Assembly: GCA_038087875.1 (NCBI GenBank)
Contig: CM075994.1
Coordinates: 11,286,001 to 11,350,000, forward strand
From: Malacoraja senta
Taxonomy: Eukaryota
Reading direction: 5' to 3'
DNA length: 64,000 nucleotides
Shown: one piece after another, positions 24,674 through 56,263 of the stretch
Numbering within the stretch: the first letter of the stretch is position 1
How the letters are laid out: each line of letters starts with the position of its first letter
Translations under genes and position numbers: made by a program
Notes under the pieces: model-generated
The model's database searches: none
What the model was told of the DNA's origin: nothing
Seen by the model: only the letters and a program-made list of their open reading frames with translations

Positions 24674-24743
24674 ATGAACAAGCCTGCACTCCTGAAGACC
24701 GAGAGTATTTACTATCCTATTCTTGCAATCATTGGAGTCCCAG
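24674..24743 (+). CDS. GPR139/GPR142-like GPCR paralogue 1, exon 1 (MNKPALLKTESIYYPILAIIGVP)
   Basis: ATG, 70 nt, strong donor CAG|GTAGGT, phase 1; joins exon 2 in frame to give TM1 YYPILAIIGVPANLVAILIL; not in the ORF track. Confidence 0.88.
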
Positions 24744-24913
24744 GTAGGTGAGCCAGAGAATGGTTTTACAGATGTACGTTGATGTGCTTGACAGACGATA
24801 TTGAACATCATGGCAAACATCTGAAAACATTACAGATTTATATGAAATTATTATTGCAAAGTGCTGTCAAAAACAAAGTATCGTGCTGATCTCACTTGTG
24901 TACTGGATCTAAA

Positions 24914-27900
24914 ATTTTACTTCGGAGTCACGTGAGTGACTACGTGAAGAAGCCCGTCAGTGCGCCTGCGCGTCATTACGGCAGACGCCTTGACGCAAAC
25001 GGACGTGAGGAGCAGTGCTCCTCGAGTGGTTTGTAGTTTTTCAACTACAAGGTAAGTAAAAACTTTTTTACAGGTTTTCCAGGTCCGTTTACTGTGGGTC
25101 TATGGCGATTTTTTCCACAGACGCCATGGGAAAAAACGGACAGGGGGAAGAGGCGAGCGACATAGCCGACAGAAGTCGGGAAAGTCGGGAGTCCGCGGTT
25201 AGAGACCAACCGCCTCTAAACCCCGGTACAGTCGCCAGCGGTGAGCATAGCGACTGTGGACCTGGGGGCTGGTGAAAACACAGTCAGTGCCTGTCGGGCA
25301 AAAGACAAAGTTTAAATCCCAACGGAGGGTGTCCCAGGCAATGAAGAAGCTCCAGGGCTAGATACTGCTTTAAAGCGTATTGCCCAAATAGAAAGCCTTT
25401 TACACAGGCTGTTGGAGCAACGTTCACTCAGTGAGGAGTGTTCTGAAAGCCAAGCTGCTGGAAACAGCTCAAACAGCTCCTGGTACAGGGCTAGATACTG
25501 CTTTCGAGCGTATTGCCCAAATAGAAGCCTTTTTCATAGGTTGTTGGAGCAAAAGTTCACTCAGGAAGGAGTGTACTGTAATCCAAGCTGCAGGAGCAGC
25601 TTAACAGCACCTGGCTCAGGGCTGATGGAATGCACCCTCAGGAATGAGGAGCGTGCTACGGGTCATGAGATTTCAGACCCCGACTCTGACGGTGAGGCTG
25701 TACAAGGCGATGAAAGGCAGCTGCCAGATGTTCCAACCCTGGTAGTAGGATTCGCTGCCCCGTCAGGGTCAGGAGAGCCATTAGGAAGAACTGGCCTCCT
25801 TAATAAATTACTTGGTTTACCATTAGCTGGAACAGCATGAAATGGATGAGACTGCAAGAGTATCTGGAATCAGTTGCAGAGAATATTAAAGCTGCTGGGT
25901 TCTGAAATAACTGCTTTTACCAGAATAGCAGTTAACAACCAAAAGATGACGAAGTTGCATCAGCAAGCACTGGGGTTGCTATGCAGCACCCACTTCGAGA
26001 AGTGCTATACGGTCTACTATGAATCCGAAATTCGCAGCACTCTGCAAACCAAGTAATATACAAATTTCCCAACTTACTCTTTGGAGAGATCTCGGGAGAC
26101 ATATTAAAGAGTTGGAAGATGAAGCGAAAACAGGATTGATGAAGACATCAATGGTTGTGAAGTCTGTAAAGAGGAAGTATCCTTTCAGACATCATACGGA
26201 TCCTGGACCAAGTCGCTCATCAACGCAGGGACGTAGTTGGCGGCCTGCAGCGGGAGCAAGAACCAGTGGGCGTGCTTCCGGGAGAACCCAGGAATCTCAG
26301 GGTACTGAAATGACTCAAGAGGTAGGTGGACCTGGTTCTCATGGGAACATACTAACTGGATTAAGTCCAAAAGTTGGAGGCAGGTTACATTTCTTCTATA
26401 ATAATTGGAAGAAAATTACTTCAGATGTGGTAATCCTGAATAATATACAAGGATTTCGAATTGAATTCAATCCAAATTATGATTTGCCTGTTCAGCATGT
26501 TCCTAGCCGAACTCTGCACTTTGTACAAAAAGAAGTGATGGAGGTTCAGGTTGCAATTGAAACCCTATATAAAAAAAAGGGGTTATTGAAAAATCAGTCT
26601 ACCAAAGTCACCAATTTGTGTCAAAAATATTCCCTCGATCAAAAAAGGATGGAGGATGTAGGATTCTTGTAGATTTGATAAATCTGAATCCTTTTGTGCA
26701 ATTTAGACATTTTAAAATGGAAACATTTGTGATTGCCAAACAGCTTATTTCAGAAGCATGTTATATGGCAACCATAGACTTGAAAGATGCATATTATTCA
26801 GTGTCTGTTCATTCACAAGATAGGAAGTATCTTAAATTTAATGGATGAACCAGTTGTGGCAGTTCAAAGCTCTGCCTAATGGGTTAATATCTGCACTCAG
26901 AATATTCACAAAAATTGTTAAAACCAATTCTGGGCTTGCTGAGTAGCCAGGGGCATGTACTAATGGCATATTTGGATGATGTCTTGATTATAGGAAAGAC
27001 AAAACAGTCAACAGAAGTATCTGTTGCAGTTGTGAAATCAACTTTTGAAAAGTTGGGGTTTCTAATTCATCCACAGAAATCTAGGTTAACACCATGTACC
27101 TCTATTAATTATTTGGGGTTCACAATTGATTCAGTCCAAATGAATATCACTTTGCCCAGGGAAAAGGGTGGATTTGATTAAAGATTGCAGTAATCTCCTA
27201 AACGAGCAAAAACCTTCAATTAGACAGGTGGCTCGTGTACTGGGAAAATTAGTAGCAGCATTCCCAGCAGTCCAATTTGGACCATTACATTATCAACAGC
27301 TGCAGAGACTTAAAGAACAGGCACCGAGAATGCATGTTGGTCATTTTGATAGAACCATGCAACTAACAACAAATGCTGTTTCTGGTCTGCAGTGGTGGAT
27401 TCTACATGTCTCAAGCAGTTCCAGCAAAGTGCTGATTGAACAACCTTCCATGATATTACAAACTGATGCCAGTGCACCAGGATGGGGTGCAACTGACTTA
27501 ACGTCTAGCTGAGGAGGCAGATGGAATCAGGAAGAGTCATTGTTACTGCAGACATGGGGAATTAACTATTTGGAGCTGCTAGGATGGTTCTATGGGCTCC
27601 AAGCTTATTGTTCTAACACAACTAATAAGCATGTTCAAGTTCAAATTGATAACACAACAGTAGTTGTTTATATTAATGATATGGAATTAAGTCGGTGTCT
27701 TGTGACAAAATGGTTAATCAATTTTGGGCTTGGTGTATTGAAAAGAACATTTGGATTTCAGCTATCTATCTACCAGGTAGAATGAACGATAGCAGACACC
27801 AAGTCACGAAAAGTTCCATGATAATAAAGAATGGATGTTGAATCAAGAGGTATTCAAGGATATAGTCATCAGATTTGGAATGACCGACATCGACTTGAAT

Positions 27901-29707
27901 CATCAGCTATCGAGATATGTCTCATGGAAACCAGATCCAGGAGCAGTGGCGATTGATGCTTTCTCGCTACATTGGGGTGGTATGTTTTCATATATATTTC
28001 CACCTTTCTGCCTCATTAGCCAATGTTTGCTTAAAATCAGGCAAGATGCTGCTTCAAGGGTATTGGTACTACCAGATTGGCCTACACAGCCATGGTATCC
28101 GTTGATATTAGAATTAACAACACAAATGTTGATGAAAGTCCCAAAAAAGAGTAATTTATTGCTGCTCCCTGTACAGGGGAACAACATCCATTATATGATC
28201 GTTTGGATTTGTTGATTTGCAGGTTTTAAGAATGCCTTTTCTGGGACGAGGACTGTCTGAGCATACTGTGGACATGCTTACGGCAGCTTGGAGGAAGAGC
28301 ACTCAAAAACAGTACCTTTCTTATATTAAGAAATGGGAAAAGTTCTGGGTACAAAAGAATGTGCAATAAAGTACTGCAGATATTTCAAATGTTTAGAATT
28401 TCTGTCAAAACTTTATTATGATGAAGGTCTGAGTTGTAGTGTAATTAATTCAGCCAGAAGTGCATTGTCCTCATATTTGGTTCTGGATTCAGAAAGAAAC
28501 TCAATTGGGTCACACCCAATTGTTTTCAGAATAATGAAAGGAATCTTTAATTCCAAACCACCGAAACCTAGGTACGTGACAATCTGGGATGTAAGTGTGG
28601 TACTGAAACTACTTCGTGATGGTTATCAAGTGTGTCTTTACCTTTGGTCAAGCTCAGTATGAAAGTATTCATGTTTATGGCATGAGTGACAGCACAACGA
28701 GTGCAAACACTTGGAAAATTACAAATAGATAGTATGGAAGTAACTGAAGACGAGGTTACATTCTATATCTATGACCTAATAAAGGAAATTAGGCCAGGTG
28801 TGACAGGATTTAAAATTATGCTGGCAGCATATCCAAATGATCCAGGTCTTTGTATTAAGACATATTTATTACAATACATTGAGGTCACAAAGAATTTGAG
28901 AATACGGAAACTGGGTTTTTGATCACACACAAGAAACCACACAAGAGAGTTTCAATACAGACTATTTCCAGATGGATAAAAGAAGTCTTAACAACTGCTG
29001 GTATTAACACTTATGTTTTTACGTCTCACTCGGCTAGGGCAGCAGAAATGTCGGCGGCCAGGGCAAAAGACGGCCCCGTCGACCATATCCTCGCAGCCGC
29101 CGGGTGGTCCAATGAGTTGATGTTTCAACATTTTTACCATCGGCCTATAGTTAATGCGGGGTTGTTTGCAGAAACTATTTTAAGTTCTGTGTAAATTCCT
29201 CTGGTTTAAAGGGGATCTGATTCATTTCATTCTTGAAATGAATTACTGCATTTGTGGTACAAATGTTATTATGAATGCATGATTGATTATTCTCGTTCCG
29301 AGTCAATCTATGCAGTGAGAAGCCGGGATTGATCCACGGCATGAAATCACAAAGCTTTAAAATCTTCACGTAGTCACTCACGTGACTCCGAAGTAAAATA
29401 GTAAGATTAAACGAGAACTTACCTAAGTTTGAAGTTTGATCTTTATTTTATGAGGAGTTACGTAGGTGATTACGTGCCCGCCACGACCCTACCCTCTATC
29501 ATAAAGGTCAGATGGAAGTTCTTGTATTACTCGTTTTAGTATGAGACTATATTACTTCGGTTCTTGTTTTTGTGATTTCACACCGCTGCTTTGAAGATTG
29601 ACGCGCAGGCGCACTGACGGGCTTCTTCACGTAATCACCTACGTAACTCCTCATAAAATAAAGATCAAACTTCAAACTTAGGTAAGTTCTCGTTTAATCT
29701 TACTATT
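24914..29707 (+). mobile_element. DIRS1-type tyrosine-recombinase retrotransposon A, coding regions disabled, inside the GPCR intron
   Basis: Inverted terminal repeats (24941-24975 vs ~29600-29634); internal complementary region 29363-29476; gag-like, RT (IDLKDAYY, YLDD), RNase H (QTDAS, INYLEL, IDNTT), methyltransferase-like (DAFSLHW..YIFPPF) and YR (AQRVQTL, HSARAA, AGWS..FY) remnants; empty site at ~52205. Confidence 0.95.
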
Positions 29708-30478
29708 CATGTGGAAAAATGATTGAATTTCTCTGACGGTAAAATTATATATAAACGTTTTATAAGTAATATAATATTCTATATATTTTATATTAGTCAA
29801 GCCCACTGGACACAACAAGCCCTCCTTCTCCACCTCATACACAGTACACCTGAACAATGGCCGATTCAACGCTTCCAAAGAGGGGTCTGCATATGAACGC
29901 GATGGTTCAAGCACTTTCTATTTTCATTCCATGCAGTTGATTTTGCATAGCTTCATTATACGAAGAACAAGTAAACGTACGGCAGCTTGCTGCTGAGCAT
30001 TATCGATCATACCAGATTTTAACTTTAGACTTCACTGCCAAAATAAAAAAAACAACGGTTTGATGGACGCTGTTCTCTGTATTCTGTAACTCCCGCTAAA
30101 GAATGTCAGTCCTGTGTGCGAGTCCGTGTGCATGCTATGATCGCAGGTGCCTCATACGTCTGATAACTTACCGCGAAATAAAACATGCAAGTCGAGGGAT
30201 GCTGTCGGTGAGTTTCCATAAAACACACGTCTTTTTATTTCCATTGTGAATGCTCAGCTAAATTAGCTCACGGTTTACTAAGGCTGAGCAACGTGGTTTC
30301 TTTTAAAGCATTGTAACATTTAAATACAAGTTGCACAAAGTGAAACTGTCTAATGGTCCTGATTTGACCTAGATTTGACAGCAGGAAAAATATAATTCGC
30401 CGATGCATTTCAGGAAGATTTAATTTTTACATTCAGCAGACATTCAGAAGAAAGGTAAAACACTTGTTGCTTTTAGAC

Positions 30479-30551
30479 ACAAAATGCTGGAGTAACTCAG
30501 CGGGACAGGCAGCATCTCTGGAGAGAAGGAATGGGTGACGTTTGGGTCATC
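30479..30551 (-). repeat. 73-bp Penelope-type repeat insertion flanked by a 14-bp direct repeat
   Basis: TGTTGCTTTTAGAC at 30465-30478 and 30552-30565; same insertion in copy 2 near 52967-53068. Confidence 0.7.
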
Positions 30552-32194
30552 TGTTGCTTTTAGACTGTTTTGCCAGATTTAATCGCTAACATTTTTGTTC
30601 TTATCGCCGAGAGGTGATTAAAGTGTTGAGGATCCATCTGCAAACTGCGATGAGTTGTGTAGCGGAGATTATGGCATGCTCCAGGTTTAGTAGTTTGGGT
30701 CGAGACTACGCCTAATCACTTCCAAGAGCACGCTCTCTCTTTACTCATGATGTTGCTTATCACCAAAAGTGTATTAGATGCGGTACCTCGACATTATTGA
30801 GCTGAGATGTCGTATGTTCGCATTTAACCCATCAGACCTACAGCAGTCACAGCTCGAGAAATTGCATCGTGTTGCTTTTTTAAATGGTTACATATTTGCA
30901 AGTGTTCGAGATTATCAAACCGGAATTAAACCTCTTCCTAGAGCCCTTCAACACGTATTGTCACACGGCCAATAGGGTTATTCCGGGGATGCGCACGCAG
31001 ACCTCTAGCGGATGGGTCTTACATTTATGTTTCCCAATGAATCCGTCTTGCAGGATAGACAACGATCCCACGCATTTAGTGGTTTGCAAACTGCAATTTT
31101 TTAGCAGGAGAATGCTAACCTGTCAGTCAGTAGAGCGGGTCGGGATGTACATGTGTTGAAAGCCGATCATGACGGTTGGAGCTGTGAACTTATCGACAGG
31201 TTGTGCCTCTGCCGTTGAGTTGTGTTGTCTGTTTTTTGTTGGCTCTGGAGAAACTGTCTACCATCTGTGATTGACTGAATTTCAAAACGTCAAGACACCA
31301 CCGAGGGGAGCTGGCGGACTGATGCCGGCCTTTCTGTCGTTCACCTCTGTATCGGAAGCACACGTGTGTTTAGAATTGGAACTACGTATAGTGGGTATGA
31401 GCACAATTTGTGTCCGCAACCAATTTAATGCTGTGACGGCAGATAACAAAAGGTAGCGTGACAAAATTATTTGAATATGGTCCTGGTCGACGTGGCGGTA
31501 GTAATTAAAGCAAGCGATTGCCCTTCCATTTCTCAGTAAGTTTGAATTCTTTGGCAGGTGCTTCAGAAGTTTAAATTTAATCGGTGGTTTTATTGCTGAA
31601 GTTTTTCATTATTTGCTGTGTTCCAATATATTCTATAATCTATTCCAATAATTTCTAGCTTGCCTTGAGCCATGTGGAGATATTTCACAAATAAAGCTGG
31701 CGATAATTGTTGAGTATCAAAGGTTGTCTGGCTTTTCGAAAATCCTTACCTCGGTCCATGATATGTGTGCGAATTAAGGTGTGAATCGTATCCGCCGCAC
31801 AGCTTCTGTAGCGGATATCAGACGTCAGCCTGCTTGGTCCGCCCTATCGGAAAATAATGTGTGTACTTGGACTCCAAGGGGAGAGAAATGGACAACAGAC
31901 TGCCATAAAATGGTAAATATTGTCCTATGCTAATTTATTACAGTAGAAGAACAAACTTAGAAATGTGAGAAGTGTGTCTGCATAGGGGGGCAACAATTTA
32001 CATGCTGCTGTGAGATCTAAACGTCACATTTGCAGATAAGCTACGAAAATTACATCTGTGTGATTATCAGTGGGGAGGCGCGAGTGCAACGGTTTCCATG
32101 AGATAACATGAATGCCAAACACGTGACAATTAAAAGGTAACATGAGTTCCAAACACGTGAAAATAAAATCTGAAAATCTGAAACAAGGCTAGCC

Positions 32195-32960
32195 GACAAC
32201 ACTGCTACTGATCGGAGCTGTGTGCTTAGTCCATGCTCTACTCCAAATACACCCATGTGTGTTTGACCACGTACAACAGTAACTCGTCTTTATGTATGCC
32301 GATGATGCCACTGCTGACGGGCACTTCGACAAGAATGATGAGACGAAGTAAAGGAAGGAAATCCGGTACATATTGTCAATGAGTCAGGACACTATCTAGA
32401 CGTTAATATCTGGACGACACAGTTGCGTGTGAACCAAAGGAAGCGGAGAGGACAAACACGGCCCCATCTCATCTCTAAATGTGATCAACATTTCGTGTTA
32501 TGTGGCATCAATATCAACAGAACCATAGCTCGTCCCTTCACGGAGATGCGATAACAACAAAGCGCATCAGTGTGTTCACTTTATTAGAAGTCTCAGAATC
32601 TTCGACATGTCCTCGAGGATTTTTTGCAAACCAGATGCGCTGTACAAAGAATTTCGCTGTACAAAGAATTTCGACGGAGTGGTTATCAGGCAGGAACGGC
32701 CACTTCACAGTCCGTAACCGCCTGATGATGCAGAGGGCGGAGAAACACTGAATTATCTATCACAGAATAGCCGTTTTCTTCTACCCAGTCCAACGCGAAT
32801 GCAAGATGGCTGCCGCCCAGACCATTCTGTTAACCTTCTGGAACGTCCATATTTAAAGGAAGATTCTGCTCCACTGCTATCAATCTCCTTAACCAATCAT
32901 GAATTTCACACCACTTTCAGCGAGGCAGCGTCAGATACCGTTACTCTTAACACACCGTCA
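32195..32960 (+). mobile_element. Ancient Rex1/Babar-like RT fragment in the GPCR intron
   Basis: Decayed SCVLSP..YSKYTHVC..YNSNS..YADDAT motif; paralogue at ~54630-55155. Confidence 0.6.
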
Positions 32961-33443
32961 TTCTTTTATCTCGTTATTGTTACTTAGTGATTTTTTTTTG
33001 CAATTCCTCAAACTGAATTTGCAGTCGGTGTTACATTTTCTATTGCTTTTACCATTACCGTACGCCATTATCTCTATGAGCAACATGATGTCATTGCCTC
33101 CAGGTTTATTTGACAACAACGCAATGTGAACCTGGGGTATTTCGACTATATTTATTAAGAAACTTTATATTTTGCAAGGAGCAGTAAACACGAGGGCTTT
33201 TCAATTTGAAGTATTTTTTACCATAGGAATGTCTCGCTCGATGACCAAATATTTTTATTTTAGTGGAGCATCAGACCTGCTGAATTGAAAGGGGTCCAAC
33301 CGTAAACCTGTGCAATATAGTTTGTTATTCCAAAGTCTTAAAGGCAAGAAAAACTCGTACACGCATGACAAATTGAAGCAAATTAATATATATTTCGCGG
33401 GTTATTTCTCGTTCGTAATTCAATTTTCTTCTTTTGGTTGCAG

Positions 33444-34390
33444 CAAATTTGGTGGCAATCCTTATCCTGTCGTCTGGAAAGTGCGGGCTCACTAGATGTG
33501 TCATCCAGTATCTGAAATCAATGGCGGTAGCTGATCTAATGGTACTGGTTTCCGATGTAATTCTCTATGAGATTAAAGAGGCATATTTTCCGCATTCATT
33601 CCTCAATTACACCCCCATTTGCAGTTTTATTTTTGTACTGATTTATATTTCGCTCGATTGTTCCGTCTGGCTGACTGTCACTTTTACATTCGATCGATTT
33701 GTTGTTATATGTTGCCAGTCGTTGCGTTCAAAATATTGTACCATGAAGACTGCATTGAAGGTAATAACAGTGGTGTTTATGTTAAGTATTTTACAAAATA
33801 TTCCAGTCTACTTTATGTTTGAACCTCGTGAAGTAATTAATGATGTACCATGGTCCTGTTATGTAAACTCAAGTTTCTACACATCACCCACCTGGGTCGC
33901 GCTTTTATGGGTTGAAACACTCTTAACCCCATTTACGCCATTTGTGTTGATTCTTCTGCTTAATACCTTGACCATAAAGCATATTATCATGGCCAACAGA
34001 GTCAGGAGCAAGCTCCGAGGGAGTAATAGAGAGGCGTGTCAGACTGATCAAGAGACTGAGAACAGAAGGAAATCGATCATTTTACTCGTTGCAATATCAG
34101 GCAACTTTATTTTCTTATGGATGGTAAACCTTGTGTGCTTCATCTGTGTACAGTTGACAGATTCTCAATTTTTGGAAACAGATTACATCGACTCGTTCAC
34201 CATTGCGGAAAAAAGTGGCTTTATGCTGAGGTATTTGAGTACTTGCACAAACACTTTCATTTATGCAGTTTCTCAGAGACACTTCAGAGAGGAACTGAAG
34301 AATGTAATTTCACGTCCCTTTCTTGCCATTGCTAATATATTCAAACTTTTGAACACAAAACTAAATTTATCCAAATATGTAATCAAGTGA
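33444..34390 (+). CDS. GPR139/GPR142-like GPCR paralogue 1, exon 2 (spliced product 338 aa)
   Basis: Acceptor ttttcttcttttggttgcag; seven-TM pattern; YLKSMAVADL, SVWLTVTFTFDRFVVIC, NIP, PFVLILLLN, FIFLW, NTFIY..FREEL resemble the GPR139/142 group. Confidence 0.9.
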
Positions 34391-36093
34391 TAATTTGCGA
34401 GGCACACATATATATCTGTAACATGTAATAGGATTTGTCGTGGTATACCTTTCCACAATTTCTTGGGATTTTGTTTCCCTATTTAGTTACCATGAACCAA
34501 TACTAAACCAAAGTGATATTTTTGAAATATAATGTACGGTCATTGAAATAGTATATTTGTTTCCATTTACTCATCCCATTTATGACGACAACTTAGTTTG
34601 AAGTCCATTGTCTATCATCAGAAACAGGAAATCGTTCAAGTCAGTATAATATGGTTTATTATAAACCGGGCGGAATTAAAGACAGACGGAATTTAAAAAT
34701 AACGTTTTGTGGCCTGACGGACGCCAAGGGTAACTGAAAATTTAAATGATGTTCCTTCCCACTGAGCTGATGTAAACTTTTAACAACGATATCATCCAAC
34801 CTTAAACACAGTTCCTCTTATTTTTGCCTTTCAATTCTGCACGTGCCTCTTATAATTTCATATAACTGTATCAGTTCGTCCCGGTTTTCCCATTTCTCGG
34901 CATCCCTTGCCGCAATGCATTTGCCTTCTTTACCCACAAGTATTTGCTTTCGCAAAATTCCTCACTTCTCATATCTCGGTATAAAATTCACGTGCAATGT
35001 TCCGTCAAGGTTTCTATCTGTTCGATATTCAGCTGCAGGCTCATGTAATTTACCTCGCGGTCCACAACACCCATGTTTTCCTGTCATCCTCAAATTCGCT
35101 AATCATATATGCAACATACGCACCGAATTAGCAATTATATGAAAAAAAAGCAAAGATCCATCACCGATCTAAAGTCCACCGGTGGCCGCATATTTTCTAA
35201 TGAGATAATAAATCTTCCACCACCACCCCGGGGCCTTATCACAAAAATGACAACATTGCATTGATCTCCCTGTGAATTAGACTACTGGCCTGCTCTACAT
35301 AGTGAGATCTTGACACTTGCCTCAATAAAATTCATTTAGGCATTGTTCACTGCCTTCATCCATATTGTTAAATGCCGCAATATTTGTGAAGTGTTCCCAC
35401 GCACAATTACGTGCTGACTATACCTGATGAGACATTGATTCAGATTTAACGCTCCTTGGACCATAAGACTTTCAGACATTGGAGCACAATTAAGTTATTC
35501 GACCCGTCGACTCTGCCAGTCGATCATGGCGAATTTTCTTTCCTTCTCAACCGCATTCTCCTTCATTCTCTCGGTAGCTTTGGACGTCCTTACTGATCAA
35601 GGGCATTTATAATCAGTTATCGGTTTATAAAGTACCATATGTTCTGACCTCTACAGCCATTTGTGGCAAAGACTTTCAAATATGCACCGCGTTCTGGCTA
35701 ATCAATCTCCTCTTTTGACCACTATAATCCTTATTCATTCAATGAGTTCTAAGTGCACTTCATACCTTGATATGATCCATAATAGGTAAATAATCTTTTG
35801 TTACCCTGCTACAACATCATTAAATGTTTGCACAGTTGCCGGAAAGGAAAGTGCAAATTACTGTGATGGAATAAAAGAAAAACGTGGAAGCTAAAACCTT
35901 ATATATTTCTCCACCGGAACGTTGACTGTTGCTCGTCCCACAGTTAATGGTTCTCCAGCATTTACTGTTTCCAATCCAGATCAGCACATTTGTTACTTGA
36001 TCATCACCGTACTATCTGAATGAAGGTGGCAATTGTATAGTTTAACAACCTGCGACTCCTAAACTAGTATGAAGCAAAGAATAGGTTGTGTAA

Positions 36094-36330
36094 ACAGGCC
36101 CGTACGAAGCTTTACAAATCCTGGCATGACAGGATTACAAAAAAATTAATGTGAAATAATGTGTGCGCTGCGCACATCACGAGCGCGAAGCGTGAAGTCC
36201 CTCGAAGCCAGGGTCCAAGGCCCGCTTAAGGGCCCAGGAAGCTCAGGGGTGTTAGATGCTCTCTGATGCATCCTGAGCCTTATTTTGGAGCATTTATGCA
36301 GCAAATCTATGACCAATATTTCAGAAATTT
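36094..36330. mobile_element. Probable non-autonomous DNA transposon fragment
   Basis: Begins caggcccgtacg; CpG-rich core cgagcgcgaagcgtgaagtccc..ggcccgcttaagggccc; paralogue at 62974-63215; family not determined. Confidence 0.4.
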
Positions 36331-43834: not shown

Positions 43835-44030
43835 GATGCTACAAACAAGAGGCAACTTACAGATGCCAATTAACCTACCAACTTGAAAGTCTTTGTGATG
43901 TGGGAAGAAGTCGGAGCATCCAGTGGAAACTGCAGTACATTGAGGATGTGCAAATTCCAGACAGATATCATCCGAGGTGAATGTCAAACTTGGGTCAAGA
44001 GCTCGGTGAGGCAGCAACTCTCTTCCGCCC
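43835..44030 (-). mobile_element. Old V-SINE-like copy
   Basis: Reverse complement resembles 41450-41660 (gttgctgcctcac..gtttgcac..ttcccaca..aaagac..gtaggttaattggc). Confidence 0.6.
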
Positions 44031-44870
44031 ATTACTCAGCTCATCCACTCTGCGCAAAATACTGAATGTCGCATAGTCATATTGGAACGAGCCAGGCTAT
44101 GTAAATATCCATCTCCTTTTTCATTCTCTATACATTTACAGTATCGACAGGTTTTGCCAGGCTTTCCAAAGATGTCTGGAGTTCCCTTTCAATTTGAACG
44201 TACTGCGGGCATATTAAGGTGACATCTCGCCATACACCATTAATTACATTTCCTCGTTCCCTTTTCCATATTCATTTCCACCTGCTTCTATCTCCAATCA
44301 GCACCCTCAACATCCGATACCAATACCACGTCCGTCCGTGAGTCTCCCCTGCTCCTCATTTTACCATAAGCTCTCTCCGCTTAGTAGATTCGGTCATTGA
44401 GTCCACTATGGAACTGCAAATATGCAGACGTTCCAATGAGATTTCATTGACCTGAAACGCTTTCTCTGATGCACTCTCCTCGGATATTGCATGACATGCG
44501 AGTATTCTCAGTGGTTTCCATTTTCGCTCAAGAACCAGTGTTCCCACTGAACTTTGGACGAACATGTCCACTTCCCAAACCCCCGCTCTCCAACGCGCAC
44601 ACAAACGGACTAACACATCTTAAGTTGGTGTGAAAAATACTTTGTGTTAAAATAAACAAACATTTTCTGAAATATTTATTTCAAGTAAAACAAATTGCGA
44701 AATAGTGCCTGTGATTTGGATATGCTTTTTCGGGATACGAATATATATGGTAGCGATGTAAACAGGAAAAACGCGAATATATTACCCATTACAAATTTAG
44801 GTCTGTGCATCGTAAATTAAAATTCCAGTTGAATGTGCATATGTCCCCTGAGTTTATCAAGCTGTGTCTT

Positions 44871-45764
44871 TTACTTCAATAATTTAGAAAGTAAAACAAG
44901 AGGCCGTTTAATAATTTACTTCATTTCATCTCTGCCGTTTCGTTGAGACGCAGCATAAATGAATGTGTTTGGACAACGGCTTAAAACTCTTAACTGGAAT
45001 CCAGTTTCTTCTGCAACGGCGAATGGGTCTCTGTAATCAGATTTCATCAGTTGATTATCGGTAAAATGTAGAGCAACAAAGCAAGCAAAATTTACCGTCC
45101 ACAATAGAAGGAAACTACCAGATATCGCGAGTAGTAAAATGAGCGATTCTCAATTTCTTGATCCATCCGGTACTTCTCAATTTCGTTTCCCCGTAGTTTG
45201 TTTCTGATTCTGTTCGCCCGTATAATATGACTTATTGTTAAGGCGTCGAACAGGAAGATCCACACAAATGGTAGAAATGGTGTGAAGACGGTCTCTAACT
45301 ATAAGAATGCAGCCCAGATAGGTAAATTATAGAAGCTTGATTTTGCAGTGCAGTACCAGGGCACATTGTCAATTACTTCACGTGGTTCAAGTAAGAAGAA
45401 AACCGGCATATTTTCAACAATGCATAATAAACAAACGATCGTTATAACCGTTGTTGAATTTTTTTCAGTGCAGTACTTAGTTTTTAACGACTGACAACAA
45501 ATAGAGACAAATCGATCAAAGGTAAACGACACAGTCAACCAAACGGAACAATCAATAACAATATAAATCAAGGTCATATTGAGACGGCAGATTCGAGTGT
45601 AATCTAGGATTGAACGTGGAAAAACGCATCATTAATCTAAAAAAGTATTGGACCAAATATCAGATGCGATAGGTTAGCTGCCGCCATCCATACTAGATAT
45701 CGGGTGTTGCATATGGAGAGCCCACACTTTCCGGTGGACAGGATGGAGATTGTCAATATATTAG
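44871..45764 (-). pseudogene. GPR139/GPR142-like GPCR pseudogene, exon 2 only
   Basis: Acceptor ttctttgcag|CT AAT; ANILTISILSTGKCGL, DCSVWLTVSFTFDRFVSICCQSL, EPREVIDNVPWYC, NTFIYAASQR; stops at 45637, 45299 and 44916, a frameshift near 45620 and a deletion near 45145; no exon 1 found. Confidence 0.9.
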
Positions 45765-46254
45765 CTGCAAAGAATAAAGGGAATTGCATTAAAACGTATC
45801 TTGGTACCATGGTCAGCCGGATCTTCCAAGGAGATTGAGATCTTCGTAGCATGATGTGAATGCAACAGCCTCTTCCCTCGTGTCTGAAAGACGAAAGAGC
45901 TAGGAATTGGACTTAAGAAGAGGTGGAGTGCATGAATCAATCTGCATCAATAGTGCTGAGTTAGAAACTAGGTAGACAGGCAGATGTGTGAGAAGAGAGC
46001 ACGGGAATGAGAATCACATGAAATTGCAAAAGTCATCATTCGGTCCACTATCTCACAAGGTATCACTTGAAAAACCATAATTCAATCCGATGCAGAAATA
46101 CTAAAACATTGACGATTTGTTAACGATGGTACAAAATTAACGATTCACATGTGTGCGAGTGCATTGGATCGCAGTAATTACAAACGGAACATTCGAGTAT
46201 TTATAAATTGTAATTATAAATTCAACTGAACATTCAAGGGTAGACGTCTTATCG

Positions 46255-47947
46255 AAGACAGACCGGTGCACAGAGTGGGTGTGGTAGCTCTGTTGGTGAG
46301 AAATGTAATTCAGTTCCTTGCGAGGGGTGACATAGATTCAGGAGATGTGTCAGTATGGATAGATCTGAGTAATTGTAAGGGTAAAACGACCCTAATGGGA
46401 GTTAACAACAGGCCCCCAAACAGTAGCCTGGATATAGGGTGCAAGTTGAATCAAGAGTTAAAATTGGCATGTCATAAGGATAATGCTACGGTTGTTATTT
46501 GAGATTTCAACATGAGGTAGACTGGGAAAATCAGGTTGGTACTGGACCCCAAGAAAGAGAGTTTGAGGAGTGCCTCCGTGATGATTTATTAGAGCAGCTT
46601 GTATTGGAGCCTACCAGGGAGAAGGCAATCTTCGATTTAGTGTTGTGTAATGAACCGGGTTTGATAAGGGAACTCGAGGTAATGGAGACATTACGAGGAA
46701 GTGAGGAAAATATGATAAGTTTTGATCTACAATTTGAGAGGGAGAAGGGTAAATCGGAGGTGTCAGTATTATAGTTGAACAAATGGGACTATGGTGCCAT
46801 TAGGGAGGAGCTGGCCAAAGTTGACTGGAAAGATACCCTAGTAGGGATGGGAGTGGACCAAAAATGATAGGTATTTCTGGGAATAATACAGAAGGTGTAC
46901 AGAAGGTTCATTCCAAAGAGGAAGACAGATTCTAAGGGGAGTAAAGGGGGCCGTGGCTGACAAGTGAAGTCAGGGACCGTATAAAAATAAAAGAGAAACA
47001 TTATAACATAGCATAGATGAGCGGGAAGCCAGAGAATTGGGAAACTTTTAAAGAGCAACAGAATATAACTAAAAAGGCAATACGGGAAGAAAATATGAGG
47101 TATGCGGATAAGCTAGCTACGAATATAAAGGAGGATAGTAAAAACTTCCTTAGGTATGTGAAGAGGAAAAAAATAGTTAAGACCAAATTTGGAGAATTGA
47201 AGACTGAAAATGGTGAATTTATTATGGGGAACAAGGAAATGGTAGACGAGTTAAACAGGTACTATGGAACTGCCTTCACTAAGGAGGACACAAACAATCC
47301 CCCTGGTGTACTAGTGGCCATAGGATCTAGGGTGATGGAGGATCCCCAGGGCGTGATGGTCTGCATCCCAGGGTACTCAAACAGGTGGCGCTGGAAATCG
47401 TGGATACATTGGTAATAATTTTCCAATGTTCTATAGACTCAGGATCAGTTCACGTGGATTAGAGTGTAGCTAATGTTATCCCACTTTAAAAAAAAAAGCG
47501 GGAAAGAGAAAACATGAAATTATAGACCAGTTAGCCTGACATCGGTGGTGCGGAAGATACTGGAGTCAATTGCAAAAGATCAAATAGCGGCACCCTTGGA
47601 TAGCAGTAGCAGGATCGGTCCGAGTCAGCATGGATTTATGAAGGGGAAATCATAGTTGACTAAATGTATGGAATTTTTTGAGGATGTAACTTGGAAAATG
47701 GACAAGAGAAAGCCAGTGGATGTAGTGTACTTGGACTTTCAGAAAGCATTTGATAAGGTCCCTCATAGGAGATTAGAGGACAAAATTAGGGCACATGGTA
47801 TTGGGGTAAGGAACTGACATGGATAGAAAATTGGTTGGCAGACAGGAAACAAAGAGTAGCGATTAACGGGTCCCTTTGAGAATGACAGGCAGTGACTAGT
47901 GGGGTACCGCAAGGGTCTGTGCTGGGACCGCAGCTATTTACAATAAA
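46255..47947 (+). mobile_element. CR1 LINE 5' segment (duplicate of 17555-19312)
   Basis: Near-identical sequence and the same Helitron interruption point. Confidence 0.9.
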
Positions 47948-50538
47948 CTAGACTGTGGGATCCTTTGGGTCCCAGGTACACACGGGGGCCTGGTCCCCAA
48001 ACGCAATATTCCACCTCTCCACCAATTCCAATATTGGTTGCCATTTGGGGAGGGAGGTCTTTCTGGCGCGCTAGCATGAGTGTTGTGGGCCGAAGGGACT
48101 GATTTCCAGAGGGCTAGTATGGACATTGTGGGCCGAATGGATTCCTGGGCTGGAAGTTCAGTCACTCAGTCACTCAGGTCTGGCAGTTCAGTCACTCAGG
48201 CCTGGCAGTTCAGTCACTCAGGCCTGGCGGGCTGGCAACTCAGGCCTGGTGGGCTGGCAGCTCATTCACACAGAGCTGGTGGGCTGGCAGCTCACACAGG
48301 GCTGGTGGGCTGGCAGCTCAGAAACTGCCAGAAATTCTGCTCAAAACAGGTGAGAGACTCTGTGAGAGAGAAGAGGGAGAGGGTGGAGAATCAACTTTAG
48401 ACATTTTTCATCAGATCACAGCAATGAAGGAGGAAAGTCTGACCTGGAGTGGATCTCACTGTGAGCCAATGATGCGAGGGAGAAACATACTGGGGTGAGG
48501 TTTAATACTTACAGGGGGAATACTTACTGATGGGCCGAAGGAACTCCTTCTGGGCTAGTACAGGCATGATGTGCCGAATGTACTCTTTAAATAAATCATT
48601 GTGAAATCTCTCTTGAATTTTCCCGGCCTGGCACATGCCATTTGGGCCAAAATACTCCTCCTGGGCTAATACGGTCATTTTCGGCAAAAGGGACTAGTTT
48701 CTGGGCTAATAGGGGCATTGTGGACCGAAATGAGTGGTTTTAGGTTGGCCAAAGGTGGGCAGTCATGTGAGCCACTCACTCGTGGCTGGTGGGCTGGCAA
48801 TTGACTCACGGCTGGCGGGCTCACACACACACCCTCCATCACACACACCTACCCTCCACCTCACACACACAATCCATCACACACACACAGACACCCCCCA
48901 TCACACACACACTCATTCATACATACACACACAGCCACACACACTCACACAATATCCATCACACACTCACAGGCACACTCAGCCACCCTCCATCTCACAC
49001 ACACTGACTCACACACACTCACTCAAACAGACACAACATATATACGACAGTAAAATCTCTTGGATCTTGTCACGCGGCTGAGCGCGGCCTGTCCATCGAG
49101 CGGGACTTCCGAATGAGCGGGACATTTGGATCAACCGGAGTGCAGGGCCAACAAGTCAAGTCAAGTCAAATCAAGTAAAGTCAAGTCAAGTCAAGCACAG
49201 TGAGTGCAGTGCCAACAATCCATTTCAAGTCAAGTCAAGTCAATCCATTTCAAGTCAAGTCAAGTCAATTCATTTCACATCAAGTCCAGTCAAGTCAAGT
49301 CAATCCATTTCAAGTCAAGTCAATTCAAGTCAATCCAAGTCACTCCAAGTCAATCCAAGGCAATCCAAGGCAATCCAAGCCAAGCCAAGTCAAGTCAAGT
49401 AAAGCCAAGCACAGCGCAAGCGGGGCCAACAATACAATCCATTTGCCAACAAAGTCAATCCATTTCAAGTCAAGACAATCCATTTCAAGACAAGTCAAGT
49501 CAAGTCAATCCATTTCAAGTCAAGTCAACTCAATCCATTTCAGGTCAAATCAAGTCAAGTCGTCCAGCCATTTCAAATCAAGTCAAGTCAATCCATTTCA
49601 AGTCAATCCAAGTCAATCCATGACAATCCACGTCAATCCAAGTCAATCCAAGTCGCTCCAAGTCACTCCAATTCTCTCCTAGTCACTCCACGTCACTCCA
49701 AGCCAATCCAAGTCAAGTCAATCCAAGTCAATCCAAGTCAAGTCAAATAAAGTCAAGTCAAGTCAATCCAAGTTAATCCAATCCAATTCAATCCAAGTCA
49801 ATCCAAGTCAATCCAAGTCAATCCAAGTCATCCAAGGCAATTCAAGCCAAGCCAAGTCAAGTCAAGTAAGGCCAAGCCAAACACAGCTCAGGCGGGGACA
49901 ACAATACAATCCATTTGCTTTCATTTCAGGTCAAGCAAAGCAAAGACAAAGCAAAATCAAAAGCACATGGCAGGCGGGGCCAGACAACAATGCAATCAAT
50001 TTGCTTTCATTTCAGGCCAAGCAAAGCAAAGGCAAAGCAAAAGCAAAAGCACAGGGCAGGTCAAACAAGTCATTGCATTTTCATTTCATTTCCATTTCCA
50101 TTGCAGTTTCAAGCACAGGGCAGGCCAAACAACTCATTGCATTTTCACTTTGGGCTAACAAATTATTTATTGCCAATACATTGCAGACTCTCAGTTCAGT
50201 TGAATCACAGCTTAGAATCAGAGTTGGGGACTCTCCCTCACAATTTTCCAGAGTGAGCGACTCACGTCCGGAATCCGGGGCTAAATACTCCCGCCCCCCG
50301 GAAGGGGCGTTGCTTTCACCATGGTGAAAGGACCAATCAGCTAATCTCACGATTTTTTAAACATTCATATTTTTTTATTTTTCAGCGAGCGGAAAAAATC
50401 CTTGGGGCTGCTGCAGCGGAGGAGGACTGTTAGTAAGATGGCAAAAATCATAGCGATATAGTGTACCGTTTTTTCTAAAAATCAATTAACTACTTAGAGA
50501 GGAAATGGTCAAGATGAGACTTTTAGTATAATGACAGA
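47948..50538 (-). mobile_element. Non-autonomous Helitron, duplicate copy with a shorter satellite
   Basis: A|CTAG at 47948, same hairpin, GA|T at 50537-50539; CAAGT array ~49150-50100. Confidence 0.85.
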
Positions 50539-51480
50539 TATTATTAATTCAGATGAATGGATTACAGGTAACATTAGCAAATTTGCACATGACACAAAGC
50601 TGGGTGGCAGTGTGAACTGTGAGGACGATGCTATGAGAATGCAGGGTGACTTGGACAGGTTGGTTGAGTGGGCAGATGGCATGGCAGATGCAGTTTAATT
50701 TGGATAAATAAATTATCCTTCTTTGGTAGCAAAATAGGAAGGCAGATTATTCTCTAAATGTTGTCAAATTGTGAAAACTGGAAGTACAACGGGATCCGGG
50801 GGTCCTTGTTCATCAGTCAATGAAAGTAAGCACGCAGGTGCAGCAGGCAGTGAAGAATGCGAATGGCATGTTGGCCTTCATACAAGAGGAGTCGAGTATA
50901 GGAGCAGATAGGTCCTTCTGCAGTTGTACAGGCCCCTAGTGAGATCACACCTGAGTATTGTGTGAAGTTTTGATCTCCAAATTTGAGGAACGACATTCTT
51001 GCTATTGAGAGAGTGTAGCGTAGGTTCACAGGATTAATTCCCGGGGTGGTGGGACTGTCATATGCTAAGAGAATGGAACGGCTGGGCTTGTATATTCTGG
51101 AATTTAGAAGGGTGAGAGGGGATCTTATTGAAACATATAAGATTATTAAGGGTTTGGACACGCTAGAGGCAGGAAACATATTCCCGATGTTGGGGGACTC
51201 CAGAACCAGGGGGCACTGTTTAAGAATAAGGGGTAAGCAGTTTAGAACGGAGATAAGGAAACAATTATTTCACACAGAGAGTTGTGAGTCTGTGGAAGCC
51301 GATTTTCTGGATACTTTCAACAGAGAGCTAGATAGGGTTCTTAAAGATAGCGGAGTTAGGGGATATGGGGAGAAGGCAGGAACGGGGTACTGATTGTGGA
51401 TGATCAGCCATGATCACATTAAATGGCGTTGCTGGCTCAAAGGGTCGAATGGCCTACTCATGCACCTATTGTCTATTGCC
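50539..51480 (+). mobile_element. CR1 LINE 3' segment (duplicate of 23434-24192)
   Basis: Near-identical sequence, without the internal deletion seen in copy 1. Confidence 0.9.
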
Positions 51481-51960
51481 TAAACAGCCACTTTTTTGTT
51501 ATGTGTTGTGCAATATTTCTGTCACATCTTCAGACTCATTCATAGTCTCGGTAAATTTGATTGTTCGCATAATCATAGATATCTCCTCAGATTTTAATTG
51601 CACATGATACTTGTAAAACATAAGAGAGGGTGCATATTGCAATTTGTTGGTGCAGCTAATGGAGAAAATTCAAAAGAAACCGCATTAAAGCGTTTACAAA
51701 AATATTTAAGCTGATAACCGATGTTTGATGTATTGACGATTTCAACAGCAGAAACATGTCTCTACAGACTACCATTTTAACAGTGATGAAGGGCATGAAA
51801 CAAACAACCTAATTAACGTGATCGTGATTGAATAATACCAATCTCATAGCGTGTTGATTCCACCCTTGAGGTTTCTGTAAAGTATAAGTACGAGCTAACT
51901 TTGAAATCGGGAGATCCGTTAGCCTATTGAACTGACTAGAAAGGCATCTTCCAACTAAAT

Positions 51961-52030
51961 ATGAACAGGCATGCACTCCTGAAGACCGAGAGTATTTACT
52001 ATCCTATTCTTGCAATCATTGGAGTCCCAG
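51961..52030 (+). CDS. GPR139/GPR142-like GPCR paralogue 2, exon 1 (MNRHALLKTESIYYPILAIIGVP)
   Basis: ATG, 70 nt, donor CAG|GTAGGT, phase 1. Confidence 0.88.
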
Positions 52031-55000
52031 GTAGGTGAGCCAGAGAATGGTTTTACAGATGTACGTTGATGTGCTTGACAGACGATATTGAACATCATGG
52101 CAAACATATCTGAAAACATTACAGATTTCTATGAAATTATTATTGCAAACAAAGTGCTGTCAAAAACAAAGTATCGTGCTGATCTCACTTGTGTACTGGA
52201 TCTAAAAATCATGTGGAAAAATGATTGAATTTCTCTGACGGTAAAATTATATATAAACGTTTTATAAGTAATATAATATTCTATATATTTTATATTAGTC
52301 AAGCCCACTGGACACAACAAGCCCTCCTTCTCCACCTCATACACAGTCCACCTGAACAATGGCCGATTCAACGCTTCCAAAGAGGGGTCTGCATATAAAC
52401 GCGATGTTTCAAGCTCTTTCTATTTTCATTCCATGCAGTTGATTTTGCATAGCTTCATTATACGAAGAACAAGTAAACGTACGGCGGCTTGCTGCTGAGC
52501 ATTATCGATCATAACTGATTTTAACTTTAGACTTCGCGGTCGAAATTAAAAAAACAAGGGTTTGATGGATGCTGTTCTCTGTCTTCTGTAACTCTCGCTA
52601 AAGAATGTCAGTCATGTGTGCGAGTCCGTGCGCATGCTATGATCGCAGGTGCCTCATCTGCCTGATAACTTACCGCGAAATAAAACATGCAAGTCGAGGG
52701 ATGCTGTCGGTGAGTTTCCATAAAACATACGTCTTTTTATTTCCATTGTAAGCGCTCAGCTAAATTAGCTCGTGGTTTACTGAGGCTGAGCAACGTGGTT
52801 TCTTTCAAAGCATTGTAACATTTAAATACAAGTTGCACAAAGTGAAACTGTCTAATGGTCCTGATTTGACCTAGATTTGACATCAGGAAAAAGAAAATTC
52901 GCCGTTGCATTTCAGGAAGATTAAATTTTTACATTCAGCAGACATTCAGAAGAAAGGTAAAACACTTGTTGCTTTTAGACACAAAATGCTGGAGTAACTC
53001 AGCGGGACAGGCAGCATTTCTGGAGAAAAGGAATGGGTGACGTTTTGGGTCACCTGTTGCTTTTAGACTGTTTTGCCAGATTTAATCGCTAACATTTTTG
53101 TTCTTATCGCCGAGAGGTGATTAAAGTGTTGAGGATCCATCTGCAAACTGCGATGGGTTGTGTAGCGGAGATTAGGGCATTCTCCATGTTTAGTAGTTTG
53201 GGTCGAGACTACGCCTAATCACTTCCAAGTGCACGCTCTCTCTTTACTCATGATGTTGCTGATCACCAAAAGTGTATTAGATGCGGTTCCTCGACATTAT
53301 TGAGCTGGGATGTCGTATGTTCGCATTTAACCCATCAGACCTACAGCACTCACAGCTCGAGAAATTGCATCGTGTTGCTTCTTTACATGGTTACATATTT
53401 GCATGTGTTCGAGATTATCAAACCGGAATTCAACCTCTCCCTAGAGCCCTTCAACACGTGTTGTCAGACGGCCAACAGGGTTATTCCGGGGATGCGCACG
53501 CAGACCTCTTGCGCATGGGTCTTACATTTATGTTTCCCAATGAATCCGTCTTGCAGGATAGACAACGATCCCACGCATTTAGTGGTTTGCAAACTGCACA
53601 TTTTTAGCAGGAAAATGCTAACCTGTCAGTCAGTACAGCGGGTCGGGATGCACATGTTTTGAAAGCCGATCATGACGGTTGGAGCTGTGAACTTATCGAC
53701 AGGTTGTGCCTCTGCCGTTGAGTTGTGTTGTCCGGTTTTTGTTGGCTCTGGAGCAACGGTCTGCCATCTGTGATTCACTGAATTTCAAAGCGTCAAGACA
53801 CCACCGAGGGGAGCTGGCGGACTGATGCCGGCCTTTCTGTCGTTCACCACCTATCGGAAGCACACGTTTGTTTAGAATTGGAACTGCGTATAGTGAGTAT
53901 GAGCACAATTTGTGTCCGCAACCAATTTAATGCCGTAATGGCAGATAACAAAAGGTAGCGTGACAAAATTATTTGAATATGGTCCTGGTCGACGTGGCGG
54001 TAGTAATTAAAGCAACTGACTACCCTTCCATTTCTCAGTAAGTTTGAATTATTTAGCAGATGCTTCAGATGTTTAAATTAAATCGGTTGTTTTAATGCTG
54101 AAGTGTTTCATTATTTAGTGTGTTAAATCTATTCCAATATTTTCTAGCTTGCCTTGAGCCATTGGAGATATTTCTCAAATAAAACTGGCGATAAATGTTA
54201 AGTATCAAAGGTTATCTGGCTTTTCGAAAGTCTGGACCTCGGTCCATGATATGTGTGCCGAGTTAATGTGTGAATCGCATCCGCCGCACAGCCTATGTAG
54301 CGGATATCAGACGTCAGCCTGCTTGGTCAGTCATATCGGAAATTAATGTGTGTACGTGGACTCTAAGGGGAGAGAAATGGACAGCAGGTTGCCATGAAAA
54401 TGTTAACGATTGCCCCCTGCTAATTTATTACAGTAGAGGAACAGAATGAGGAATGTGAGAAGTGTGTATGCAGAGGGGGCAACAATGTACATGCTGCTGT
54501 GAGCTCTAAATGGCACATTTGCAGATAAGCTGCGAAAATTAAATTGTGTGATTATCAGTGGGGAGGCGCGGTTTCCACGAGATAAACTAAGGTAACATGA
54601 GTGCCAAACACATGACAAATAAAATCTGAAATTAATAAGCATCTCTAAACATCCTTGGTCGACGGGTATCCAGCTGCAAATGGGCTTTGGACTTCAGGCC
54701 AGGCAGGCTCCTATCACGTGGAATTGGTTTTACCGTCTCCACAAGGATAGCCCACAATACTGCTACTGCTCGGAGCTGTGTGCTCAGTCCATGCTCTACT
54801 CCAAATACACCAATGTGTGTTTGACCGCGTACAACGGTAACTCTGTGTTTAAGTATGCCGATGATGCCACTGTTGACGGGCACTTCGACAAGAATGATGA
54901 GACGAAATAGAGGAAGGAAATCCGGTACATAGTGTCATTAAGTCAGGACACTATCTAGCCGTTAACATCTCGGCGACACAGTTGCGTGTGAACTAAAGGA

Positions 55001-55316
55001 AGCGGAGAGGACAAACACCGCCCCATCTCATCTCTATATGTGATCAACATTTCGTGTTATGTGGCATTAATATCACCAACACAATAGCTGGTCCCTTCAC
55101 GGAGATGCGATAACAACAAAGCGCAACAGTGTGTTCACTTTATGAGAAGTCTGAGAATTAAAAGGGGTCCAACCGTAAACCTGTGTAATATAGTTTGTTA
55201 TTCCAAAGTGTTATAGGCAAGAGAAACTCCTACACGCATGACAAATTGAAGCAAATGAATATATATTTCGCGGGTTATTGCTCGTTCGTAATTCAATTTT
55301 CTTCTTTTGGTTGCAG

Positions 55317-56263
55317 CAAATTTGGTGGCAATCCTTATCCTGTCGTCTGGAAAGTGCGGCCTCACTAGATGTGTCATCCAGTATCTGAAATCAATGGCGG
55401 TAGCTGATCTAATGGCACTGGTTTCCAATGTAATACTCTATGAGATTAAAGAGGCATATTTTCCGCATTCATTTCTCAATTACACGCCTATTTGCAGTTT
55501 TGTTATTACACTGAATTATATTTCGCTCGATTGTTCCGTCTGGCTGACTGTCACTTTTACATTCGATCGATTTGTTGCTATATGTTGCCAGTCGTTGCGT
55601 TCAAAATATTGTACCATGAAGACGGCATTGAAAGTAATAACAGCGGTGTTTATGTTGAGTATTTTAGAAAATATTCCAATCTACTTTATATTTGAACCAC
55701 GCGAAGTAATTAATGATGTACCATGGTCCTGTTATGTAAAATCAAGTTTCTACACAGTACCCACCTGGGTCGCGTATTTATGGTTTGAAACACTCTTAAC
55801 CCCATTTGCGCCATTTGTGTTGATTCTTCTGCTTAATACCTTGACCATAAAGCATATTATCATGGCCAACAGAGTCAGGAGCAAGCTCCGAGGGAGTAAT
55901 AGAGAGGCGTGTCAGACTGATCAAGAGACTGAGAACAGAAAGAAATCGATCATTTTACTCGTTGCAATATCTGGCAACTTTATTTTCTTATGGATGGTAA
56001 ACCTTGTGTTCTTCATCTGTGTACAGTTTACAGATTTTCAATTTATGGAAACAGATCACATCGACTCGTTCACCATTGCGGAAAGAAGTGGCTTTATGCT
56101 GAGGTGTTTGAGTACTTGCACAAACACTTTCATTTATGCAGTTTCTCAGAGACACTTCAGAGAGGAACTGAAGAATGTAATTTCACGTCCCTTTCTTGCC
56201 ATTGCTAATATATTCAAACGTTTGAACACAAAACTAACTTTATCCAAATATGTGATCAAGTGA
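55317..56263 (+). CDS. GPR139/GPR142-like GPCR paralogue 2, exon 2 (spliced product 338 aa)
   Basis: Same acceptor, intact frame, about 26 amino acid differences from paralogue 1 in this exon. Confidence 0.9.

Follow-up and report, generated by a model that had tools for sequence, protein, structure and literature searches.

A recent tandem duplication of class A receptor genes in Malacoraja senta and a putative GPR139-related sensor repertoire of cartilaginous fishes

Results

The stretch of Malacoraja senta DNA analysed here (64,000 nucleotides; GenBank assembly GCA_038087875.1, contig CM075994.1, positions 11,286,001 to 11,350,000 of the forward strand; hereafter the window, whose first letter is position 1) carries two intact genes, A and B, for class A G protein-coupled receptors (GPCRs) and one divergent pseudogene, C. 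This inventory had been proposed in a preliminary description of the locus, and the gene models obtained here bear it out. Exon 1 of A (24674..24743, + strand, 70 nt) holds the ATG, the short N-terminus and the first half of transmembrane helix 1 (TM1), and is followed immediately by a phase-1 donor, GTAGGT. A GT-AG intron of 8.7 kb (24744..33443, +), enlarged by a DIRS-type retroelement, separates it from exon 2 (33444..34390, +), encoding the remaining seven-transmembrane (7TM) receptor and the stop. B has the same plan, with exon 1 at 51961..52030 (+), an intron of 3.3 kb at 52031..55316 (+), empty at the site of the element in A, and exon 2 at 55317..56263 (+). Both reading frames are open over the two exons and encode proteins of 338 amino acids that are 92% identical, differing at 28 residues and at 43 of 1017 bases. 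The TATA-like word TATAA occurs 78 bases above each ATG, at 24596..24600 for A and 51883..51887 for B (both +), as a candidate promoter in a window that contains 196 matches to this word.

In both genes the intron lies in phase 1 within TM1, in the Ala codon that follows GVP. We take it that the intron of GPR139 interrupts the same codon. The GPR139 gene likewise consists of two exons (PMC7318219). About 11 residues precede TM1 in A and in B, and both proteins carry DRF, FLWMVN and NTFIY, all as first described, with an N-terminus then put at about ten residues. NTFIY, the absence of a proline at position 7.50, had been taken to set the pair apart; this did not hold, as GPR139 has F at 7.50 (PMC8807744). 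The Pfam model 7tm_1 matches A and B with E values of 6e-18 and 7e-19 (65.7 and 68.7 bits, against a curated cut-off of 30.5).

Pseudogene C (45764..44871, − strand) consists of exon 2 only and shares about 68% DNA identity with A and B. It is interrupted by three premature stops (45639, 45301 and 44918) and by two frameshifting deletions, of 1 base near 45624 and of 10 bases near 45148. Its acceptor is kept and agrees with that of A and B in position and phase. When the exon-1 peptide was used as a tblastn query, nothing credible emerged for an exon 1 of C in the window. The proposal that all three loci share the phase-1 intron in TM1 thus stands in full for A and B and for the acceptor alone in C. 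Contigs of two independent runs, X1 and X2 (45405-45803), cross the frameshift at 45624 without a gap, so this lesion is common to other samples; in run X2, a further 1-base deletion occurs at 45027 at about half depth.

A and B are the product of one recent 28.7-kb tandem duplication. When the window is compared with itself, 17104-37114 matches 45806-63999 in blocks of 90–98% identity, with an offset of 28.7 kb. The first copy of the duplicated unit (17104..45805, +) holds A and ends about 40 bases into the intron of C; the second (45806..64000, +) holds B and runs off the window. Non-coding divergence between the units amounts to 2–6% in seven of the eight blocks and to 0.6% in the remaining one, of 171 bases. 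The motif of an old long interspersed nuclear element (LINE) reverse transcriptase runs uninterrupted over 17104 (tblastx to a copy at 39662-39555, E 0.008), whereas only its right half is present at 45806, adjoining the intron of C; the new junction therefore lies at about 45805. Independent DNA contigs agree with this: the X2 and X3 records end at 45803, and a 491-base X5 record matches as far as 45803, after which come 218 letters without a fit. Since this breakpoint falls about 40 bases above the acceptor of C, which is all that C keeps of its splice sites, we strongly infer that the same duplication separated C from its exon 1, and a second copy of C would be expected about 8 kb past the end of the window. 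The locus had been proposed to be a birth-and-death cluster; the pseudogene fits this description, but A and B go back to a single event and are not independent births.

High identity over more than 18 kb is also what would be seen if the assembly had placed two haplotypes of a single locus side by side as A and B; such an artefact would concern this pair and not the family. In this respect, no listed contig spans the junction at 45805 in the runs examined, which cover the B side. The contigs of the four runs cover all repeats and so behave as DNA. Against this explanation stand the 2–6% non-coding divergence in seven of eight blocks and the 28 amino acid differences, the different DIRS-type insertion in each copy, and a junction that is sharp and cuts through an old LINE fragment. 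We regard an assembly artefact as unlikely and give the two-haplotype explanation very little chance of being right.

A homologue search with A returned 1,692 protein clusters at E≤1e-3 from 3,328 candidates. Among the best 120 of these, 111 are named and all 111 come from sharks or rays: 28 from Heptranchias, 24 from Heterodontus, 16 from Pristiophorus, 15 from Rhinoraja and 28 from ten other genera. Many entries share a contig, at least 21 in Heterodontus, at least 16 in Heptranchias and at least 14 in Rhinoraja; the genus and contig counts were made by eye and are lower bounds obtained from one subfamily. Against 50%-identity representatives, a profile search yielded 136 matches at E≤1e-30. 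Sixteen of the 87 representatives P0121-P0207 were looked up, of which 15 are chondrichthyan, including one chimaera, and one has no name; the remaining 71 are assumed to be chondrichthyan. Family size is taken from the entries of other species and not from the genome of Malacoraja senta. All 98 aligned members match 7tm_1 and none matches an olfactory or taste model of Pfam. The TM1 start motif follows 11 residues in 52 of the 58 best-120 matches that have it within their first 60 residues. By these sequence comparisons, A, B and C are a slice of a large chondrichthyan expansion. That they belong to a lineage-expanded family and do not represent the GPR139 orthologue had been suggested beforehand, and family size, profile match and tree placement agree with it.

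The entries called 'probable G-protein coupled receptor 139' in RefSeq and UniRef for sharks, rays and a chimaera belong to this same family, with 48–79% identity, common motifs and a short N-terminus. These names are automatic and inconsistent, other members being called 'sex peptide receptor-like', 'capa receptor-like' or 'vasopressin V2 receptor-like'. As a lead only, a sequence-atlas lookup gave two 'probable GPR139' chordate clusters together with invertebrate 7tm_1/Srw clusters.

How close is this family to GPR139? Among receptors with structures in the PDB, which are those compared, the family profile finds human GPR139 as its best match (PDB 7VUG, 65.5 bits; next 51.8). GPR139 is also the top PDB match for a coelacanth member of a second clade, clade II (70 bits), and for an amphioxus member (93 bits), and an invertebrate-type control prefers the ghrelin receptor. 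When A is used as a single sequence, GPR139 is reached at E 5e-5 and 26 bits, below the best chains of six other receptor entries, among which are prolactin-releasing peptide, neuromedin U, galanin and vasopressin receptors. Against the family profile, human GPR139 is outscored by several clades of non-mammalian chordates and by some unnamed receptors of invertebrate type. Describing the genes as GPR139/142-like is in consequence apt in a loose sense only, GPR139 being the closest solved receptor of the profile. Because the coelacanth and amphioxus members outscore A against GPR139, and the invertebrate-type control turns to the ghrelin receptor, A and B are best placed, on present sequence comparisons, in a wider GPR139-related group, without being GPR139 or GPR142.

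In a quick tree and in a careful 38-row tree, A, B and C fall within the chondrichthyan radiation, beside ray sequences. The radiation groups with a clade of amphibian and sturgeon genes, with support of 100/99 in the careful tree and a Shimodaira–Hasegawa-like approximate likelihood-ratio value (SH-aLRT) of 92 in the quick one; the careful tree was built without a mixture model and gave a long-branch warning at its root, which makes the branching order of the deep clades uncertain. The amphibian/sturgeon clade makes up 21 of the 25 matches in its search (for example XP_069092602.1 of Pleurodeles; P0211, P0416-P0435). Clade II (P0219, P0285-P0402) ranges from sharks up to turtles, lizards and snakes, and the named matches of the 120 listed include neither mammals nor birds. 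Clade III comprises teleost and bichir genes, and further relatives are amphioxus genes. Judged by protein listings, the amphibian/sturgeon and clade II genes are apparently single-copy. Two clade II models are labelled as TMEM183A isoforms, which suggests TMEM183A as a neighbour. The amphibian/sturgeon sister gene is like the family of A and B in its short N-terminus, its disulfide and its DR motif, and unlike it in forming one cluster per species or species group and in its nearly invariant basic pocket, which keeps K6.51, N7.39 and P6.50, has a pairwise identity of 0.94 and carries a net charge of +3 in 21 of 21 sequences.

The AlphaFold model of A, computed for exon 2 only and therefore with a partial TM1, has a mean predicted local distance difference test score (pLDDT) of 89.5 and presents a confident class A bundle with helix 8 and a beta-hairpin in extracellular loop 2 (ECL2). 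It matches solved class A receptors with Z of about 25–27 and a root-mean-square deviation of about 3 Å over 245–277 residues. Fold searches did not discriminate within class A, Z being 25–27 across all 50 rows listed: GPR139 is tied at Z 25.5 in VIA-align and does not figure among the best 50 Foldseek matches listed. The hairpin, and the presence of the peptide receptors NTSR1, CCK1 and galanin among the fold matches, could point to receptors for diversified peptides of the animal itself, such as hormones, chemoattractants or pheromones. Indeed, ACTH and MSH peptides activate GPR139 (PMC7318219), and GPR139 and GPR142 group with the MIP receptors of protostomes (PMC11004728). The tied fold scores, however, give no pointer to a ligand, and hundreds of receptors would need a matching expanded family of peptides, for which no search was made; we consider this explanation improbable.

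The family also departs from GPR139 in its binding pocket. GPR139 has Trp, Phe and MSH as agonists (PMC7318219), and its activation needs F109, H187, W241 and N271 (PMC5430874). R244 at 6x51 is also critical; it docks the carboxyl group of Trp or Phe and has been described only in GPR139 and GPR142 (PMC8807744). A and B keep in kind Y91 at 3.33, the counterpart of F109, and W249 at 6.48, the counterpart of W241. At 6.51 they have N252, which is not basic; N271 (7.39) aligns with F283; and H187 aligns, according to gap placement, with A176 or E181, so that it has no His counterpart. A and B also lack P6.50 of GPR139, and they have the disulfide between TM3 and ECL2 that GPR139 does not (PMC5430874). 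The likeness to human GPR139 and GPR142 is that of class A receptors with GxPAN in TM1, SxW in TM3, no P7.50, an aromatic residue at 3.33 and W6.48, at 23% identity in a structural alignment, and those two are single conserved genes, in contrast with the large radiation found here.

Could the family then be a multiplied set of GPR139/142-type receptors for aromatic L-amino acids? The lead of GPR139 in the profile search of the PDB, the aromatic residue at 3.33 with W6.48, and the database name would speak for it. The replacement of R6.51 and N7.39, the missing histidine, the added disulfide and the low rank of GPR139 in the single-sequence search speak against it, and we judge it highly unlikely. 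With only two of five key residues kept in kind, the amino-acid sensing of GPR139 type that had been proposed is not upheld.

Loss of the basic residue is general in the radiation. R or K occupies 6.51 in 1 of the 120 best homologues and in 8 of the 70 family representatives that have a residue there, as against 21/21 amphibian/sturgeon, 119/119 clade II, 3/3 amphioxus-type and 1/5 clade III sequences. As it is present in the sister, clade II and amphioxus-type sets and rare in the radiation, a basic 6.51 is likely ancestral and would have been lost in the chondrichthyan radiation. In clade II, where the residue is R in all 119, Ser or Cys stands in place of W6.48.

Variation within the radiation concentrates on the pocket. 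Comparing 37 pocket positions with 158 other helix positions, the ratio of entropies reaches 1.41 (p=0.003) in one chondrichthyan set and 1.58 (p=1.5e-6) in another; the single-copy clades have ratios of 0.28 and 0.71. Between A and B, 10 of the 37 pocket positions and 18 of the 301 others are different (p=2e-4); within exon 2, differences fall on 19 of 130 outer-half and 7 of 184 inner-half positions (p=8e-4). By contrast, the signalling core is preserved: D3.49, W6.48 and both disulfide cysteines (Cys3.25 and that of ECL2) are present in 120/120 best homologues, and R3.50, N7.49 and Y7.53 are invariant in the 98-row alignment. The net charge of the pocket has a median of −4 in the best 120 and of +3 in the amphibian/sturgeon clade. 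The acidic residues of the A/B subfamily are D3.37, E4.56, E/D5.42 and E7.35, a pocket that suggests amines or basic peptides as its ligands. Taken as sequence evidence, the pocket pattern supports a diversification of ligands and argues against the sensing of aromatic amino acids; the earlier suggestion of a ligand-diversified family is accordingly in keeping with pocket variability, with the pocket differences between A and B and with the loss at 6.51. Four of the five consecutive residues at codons 86-90, in TM3, differ between A and B, and this cluster may represent gene conversion from another paralogue over a short tract.

The remainder of the window is rich in mobile elements and repeats. 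The element in the intron of A (24915..29706, +) is a decayed retroelement of DIRS type (tyrosine recombinase) that is missing from B; it has terminal inverted repeats and, in its interior, a complementary region. A second one lies downstream of B (57521..62602, −; ends approximate) and is absent from the matching site of A. The two are 68% identical overall and share an identical 37-base terminal repeat. Each insertion site is A/T-rich and empty in the other duplicate, so either both elements transposed after the duplication or they were cleanly lost. The LINE-1-like element at 3848-9515 (+) is apparently intact: it encodes a 356-aa ORF1 and a 1266-aa ORF2 in which domains for endonuclease, reverse transcriptase and zinc binding are present. 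A broken relative lies at about 11452-14262. Tandem arrays of 22/26/52-base units (19516-19684 and 48150-48320) are located 5.0 kb upstream of exon 1 in A and 3.6 kb upstream of it in B; no tandem array was found within 1.6 kb of either ATG. Degenerate long CAAGT arrays with an 85–86-base repeat, at 20535-21938 and 49152-50060 upstream of A and B, give rise to spurious Ser/Gln-rich open reading frames.

Discussion

We propose that the family to which A and B belong is a birth-and-death sensor repertoire of unusual origin, a prediction of function that we hold to be somewhat probable. With about the same moderate confidence, we predict that its role would be that of a broad set of sensors for foreign small molecules or short peptides, and not for Trp or Phe. 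In its fuller form, which we put forward tentatively, the proposal is that cartilaginous fishes may possess an undescribed chemical-sensing repertoire of their own, far larger than their known olfactory families, which would have arisen from a GPR139-related gene through loss of the arginine that binds amino acids and diversification of the pocket, and which would serve as an innate-immune or olfactory detector array. Equally tentative is the part of this proposal by which the starting gene would persist as one conserved copy, or have been lost, in other jawed vertebrates.

Several observations weigh against this proposal. The dN/dS between A and B, from one pair of coding sequences, is 0.73. 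In the outer half of exon 2, pN/pS is 0.071/0.089 (about 0.8) and synonymous changes are raised there as well, so that this pattern could equally stem from relaxed constraint or gene conversion. The pocket positions used are general class A positions, numbered from anchor residues and not measured from the cavity, and the entropy test compares paralogues with orthologues. The pockets of A and B themselves have a charge of −2, and the median is 0 over 64 wider representatives (13 gappy rows dropped), on which ground an acidic pocket was rejected as a family-wide trait. Finally, monophyly of the chondrichthyan set alone has support of 91/79 in the 38-row tree, and both trees were built without human GPR139 and GPR142.

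Some of these observations would be expected under genomic drift, in which repeat-rich clusters are prone to duplication and pocket variation reflects relaxed constraint in place of new ligands. The origin of A and B in one large segmental duplication amid LINE, DIRS and satellite sequence, their dN/dS and the multiply broken pseudogene between them would all agree with it. Drift accounts poorly, however, for variation that gathers at pocket positions, with a signalling core that does not vary in the best 120, for the pN/pS of the inner half of exon 2 (0.017/0.039, about 0.42) and for subclades common to sharks and rays, by which copies have been kept over long times. We regard drift as rather unlikely and continue with the proposal of a sensor repertoire.

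A possible course of events is the following. The ancestral gene would have been single-copy, with a basic and nearly invariant pocket, as it apparently still is in amphibians and sturgeon. In cartilaginous fishes, it would have been released from its one conserved ligand and then multiplied in tandem. Because the receptors have no ligand-binding N-terminus, the small ligand of each copy would sit within the helix bundle, below the disulfide-tied hairpin of ECL2, and each copy would couple to a G protein, which the analogy of GPR139 would make Gq or Gi. Different copies would recognise different ligands.

Where might such sensors act? Immune, gut or skin barrier cells are one possible site, which we name with reserve; the nose or the taste organs are a site that we consider somewhat unlikely. 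A repertoire for smell or taste that has gone unrecognised in sharks and rays, which is the variant of our proposal that differs in tissue, would sit well with tandem clusters, pseudogenes, a minimal N-terminus and a variable pocket, all typical of chemoreceptor families. The known repertoires of the catshark are small (34 V2R/OlfC genes and 4–9 genes in each other olfactory family; PMC10116579) and leave room for another. Yet catshark olfactory neurons are nearly all microvillous Go/TRPC2 cells, in which many V2Rs are expressed, and olfactory receptors (ORs) are silent in the nose (PMC10116579). In part on account of these data we lean slightly away from the nose, and see the olfactory or taste variant as a doubtful one, though by no means negligible. 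GPR139 has no occurrence in PMC10116579, so that the family is there neither tested nor excluded.

The family resembles ORs, TAARs, T2Rs, V1Rs, FPRs and MRGPRs in its tandem clusters, pseudogenes, short N-terminus and variable pocket, but it is a member of none of them and has a different origin. FPRs and MRGPRs are birth-and-death sensor families of immunity. Non-mammalian orphan families named 'NMOGPR' and 'Orphan 139-like', of unclear membership, have been placed beside GPR139/142 (PMC5207463, Table 1). They may correspond to the single-copy clades described here, the table giving names and no sequences, and no chondrichthyan expansion is mentioned in that table.

The literature searched, with most subscription journals outside its reach and some result lists seen in part, held no paper on a chondrichthyan expansion, and the consulted portions of PMC13113109 and PMC5818035 contained nothing on this receptor family. 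There is a further consideration. A chordate-wide survey of GPCRs is said to have named expanded GPR139/142-related 'short peptide and free amino acid receptors' and to have linked them to innate immunity; literature searches for this wording found nothing. This lowers our confidence that the expansion itself is new to the literature.

The receptor family is hidden behind the automatic name 'probable GPR139'. Sharks and rays have been thought poor in chemoreceptor genes, as the catshark counts illustrate (PMC10116579). The conserved pocket and basic 6.51 of the amphibian/sturgeon sister and of clade II probably correspond to one findable ligand, and the sister gene is a good target in the search for the ancestral one. 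A and B, which differ mostly at pocket positions, constitute a natural matched pair. If the proposal made here is true, a further large GPCR family with a variable pocket would alter the view of chemical sensing or of innate immunity in sharks and rays.

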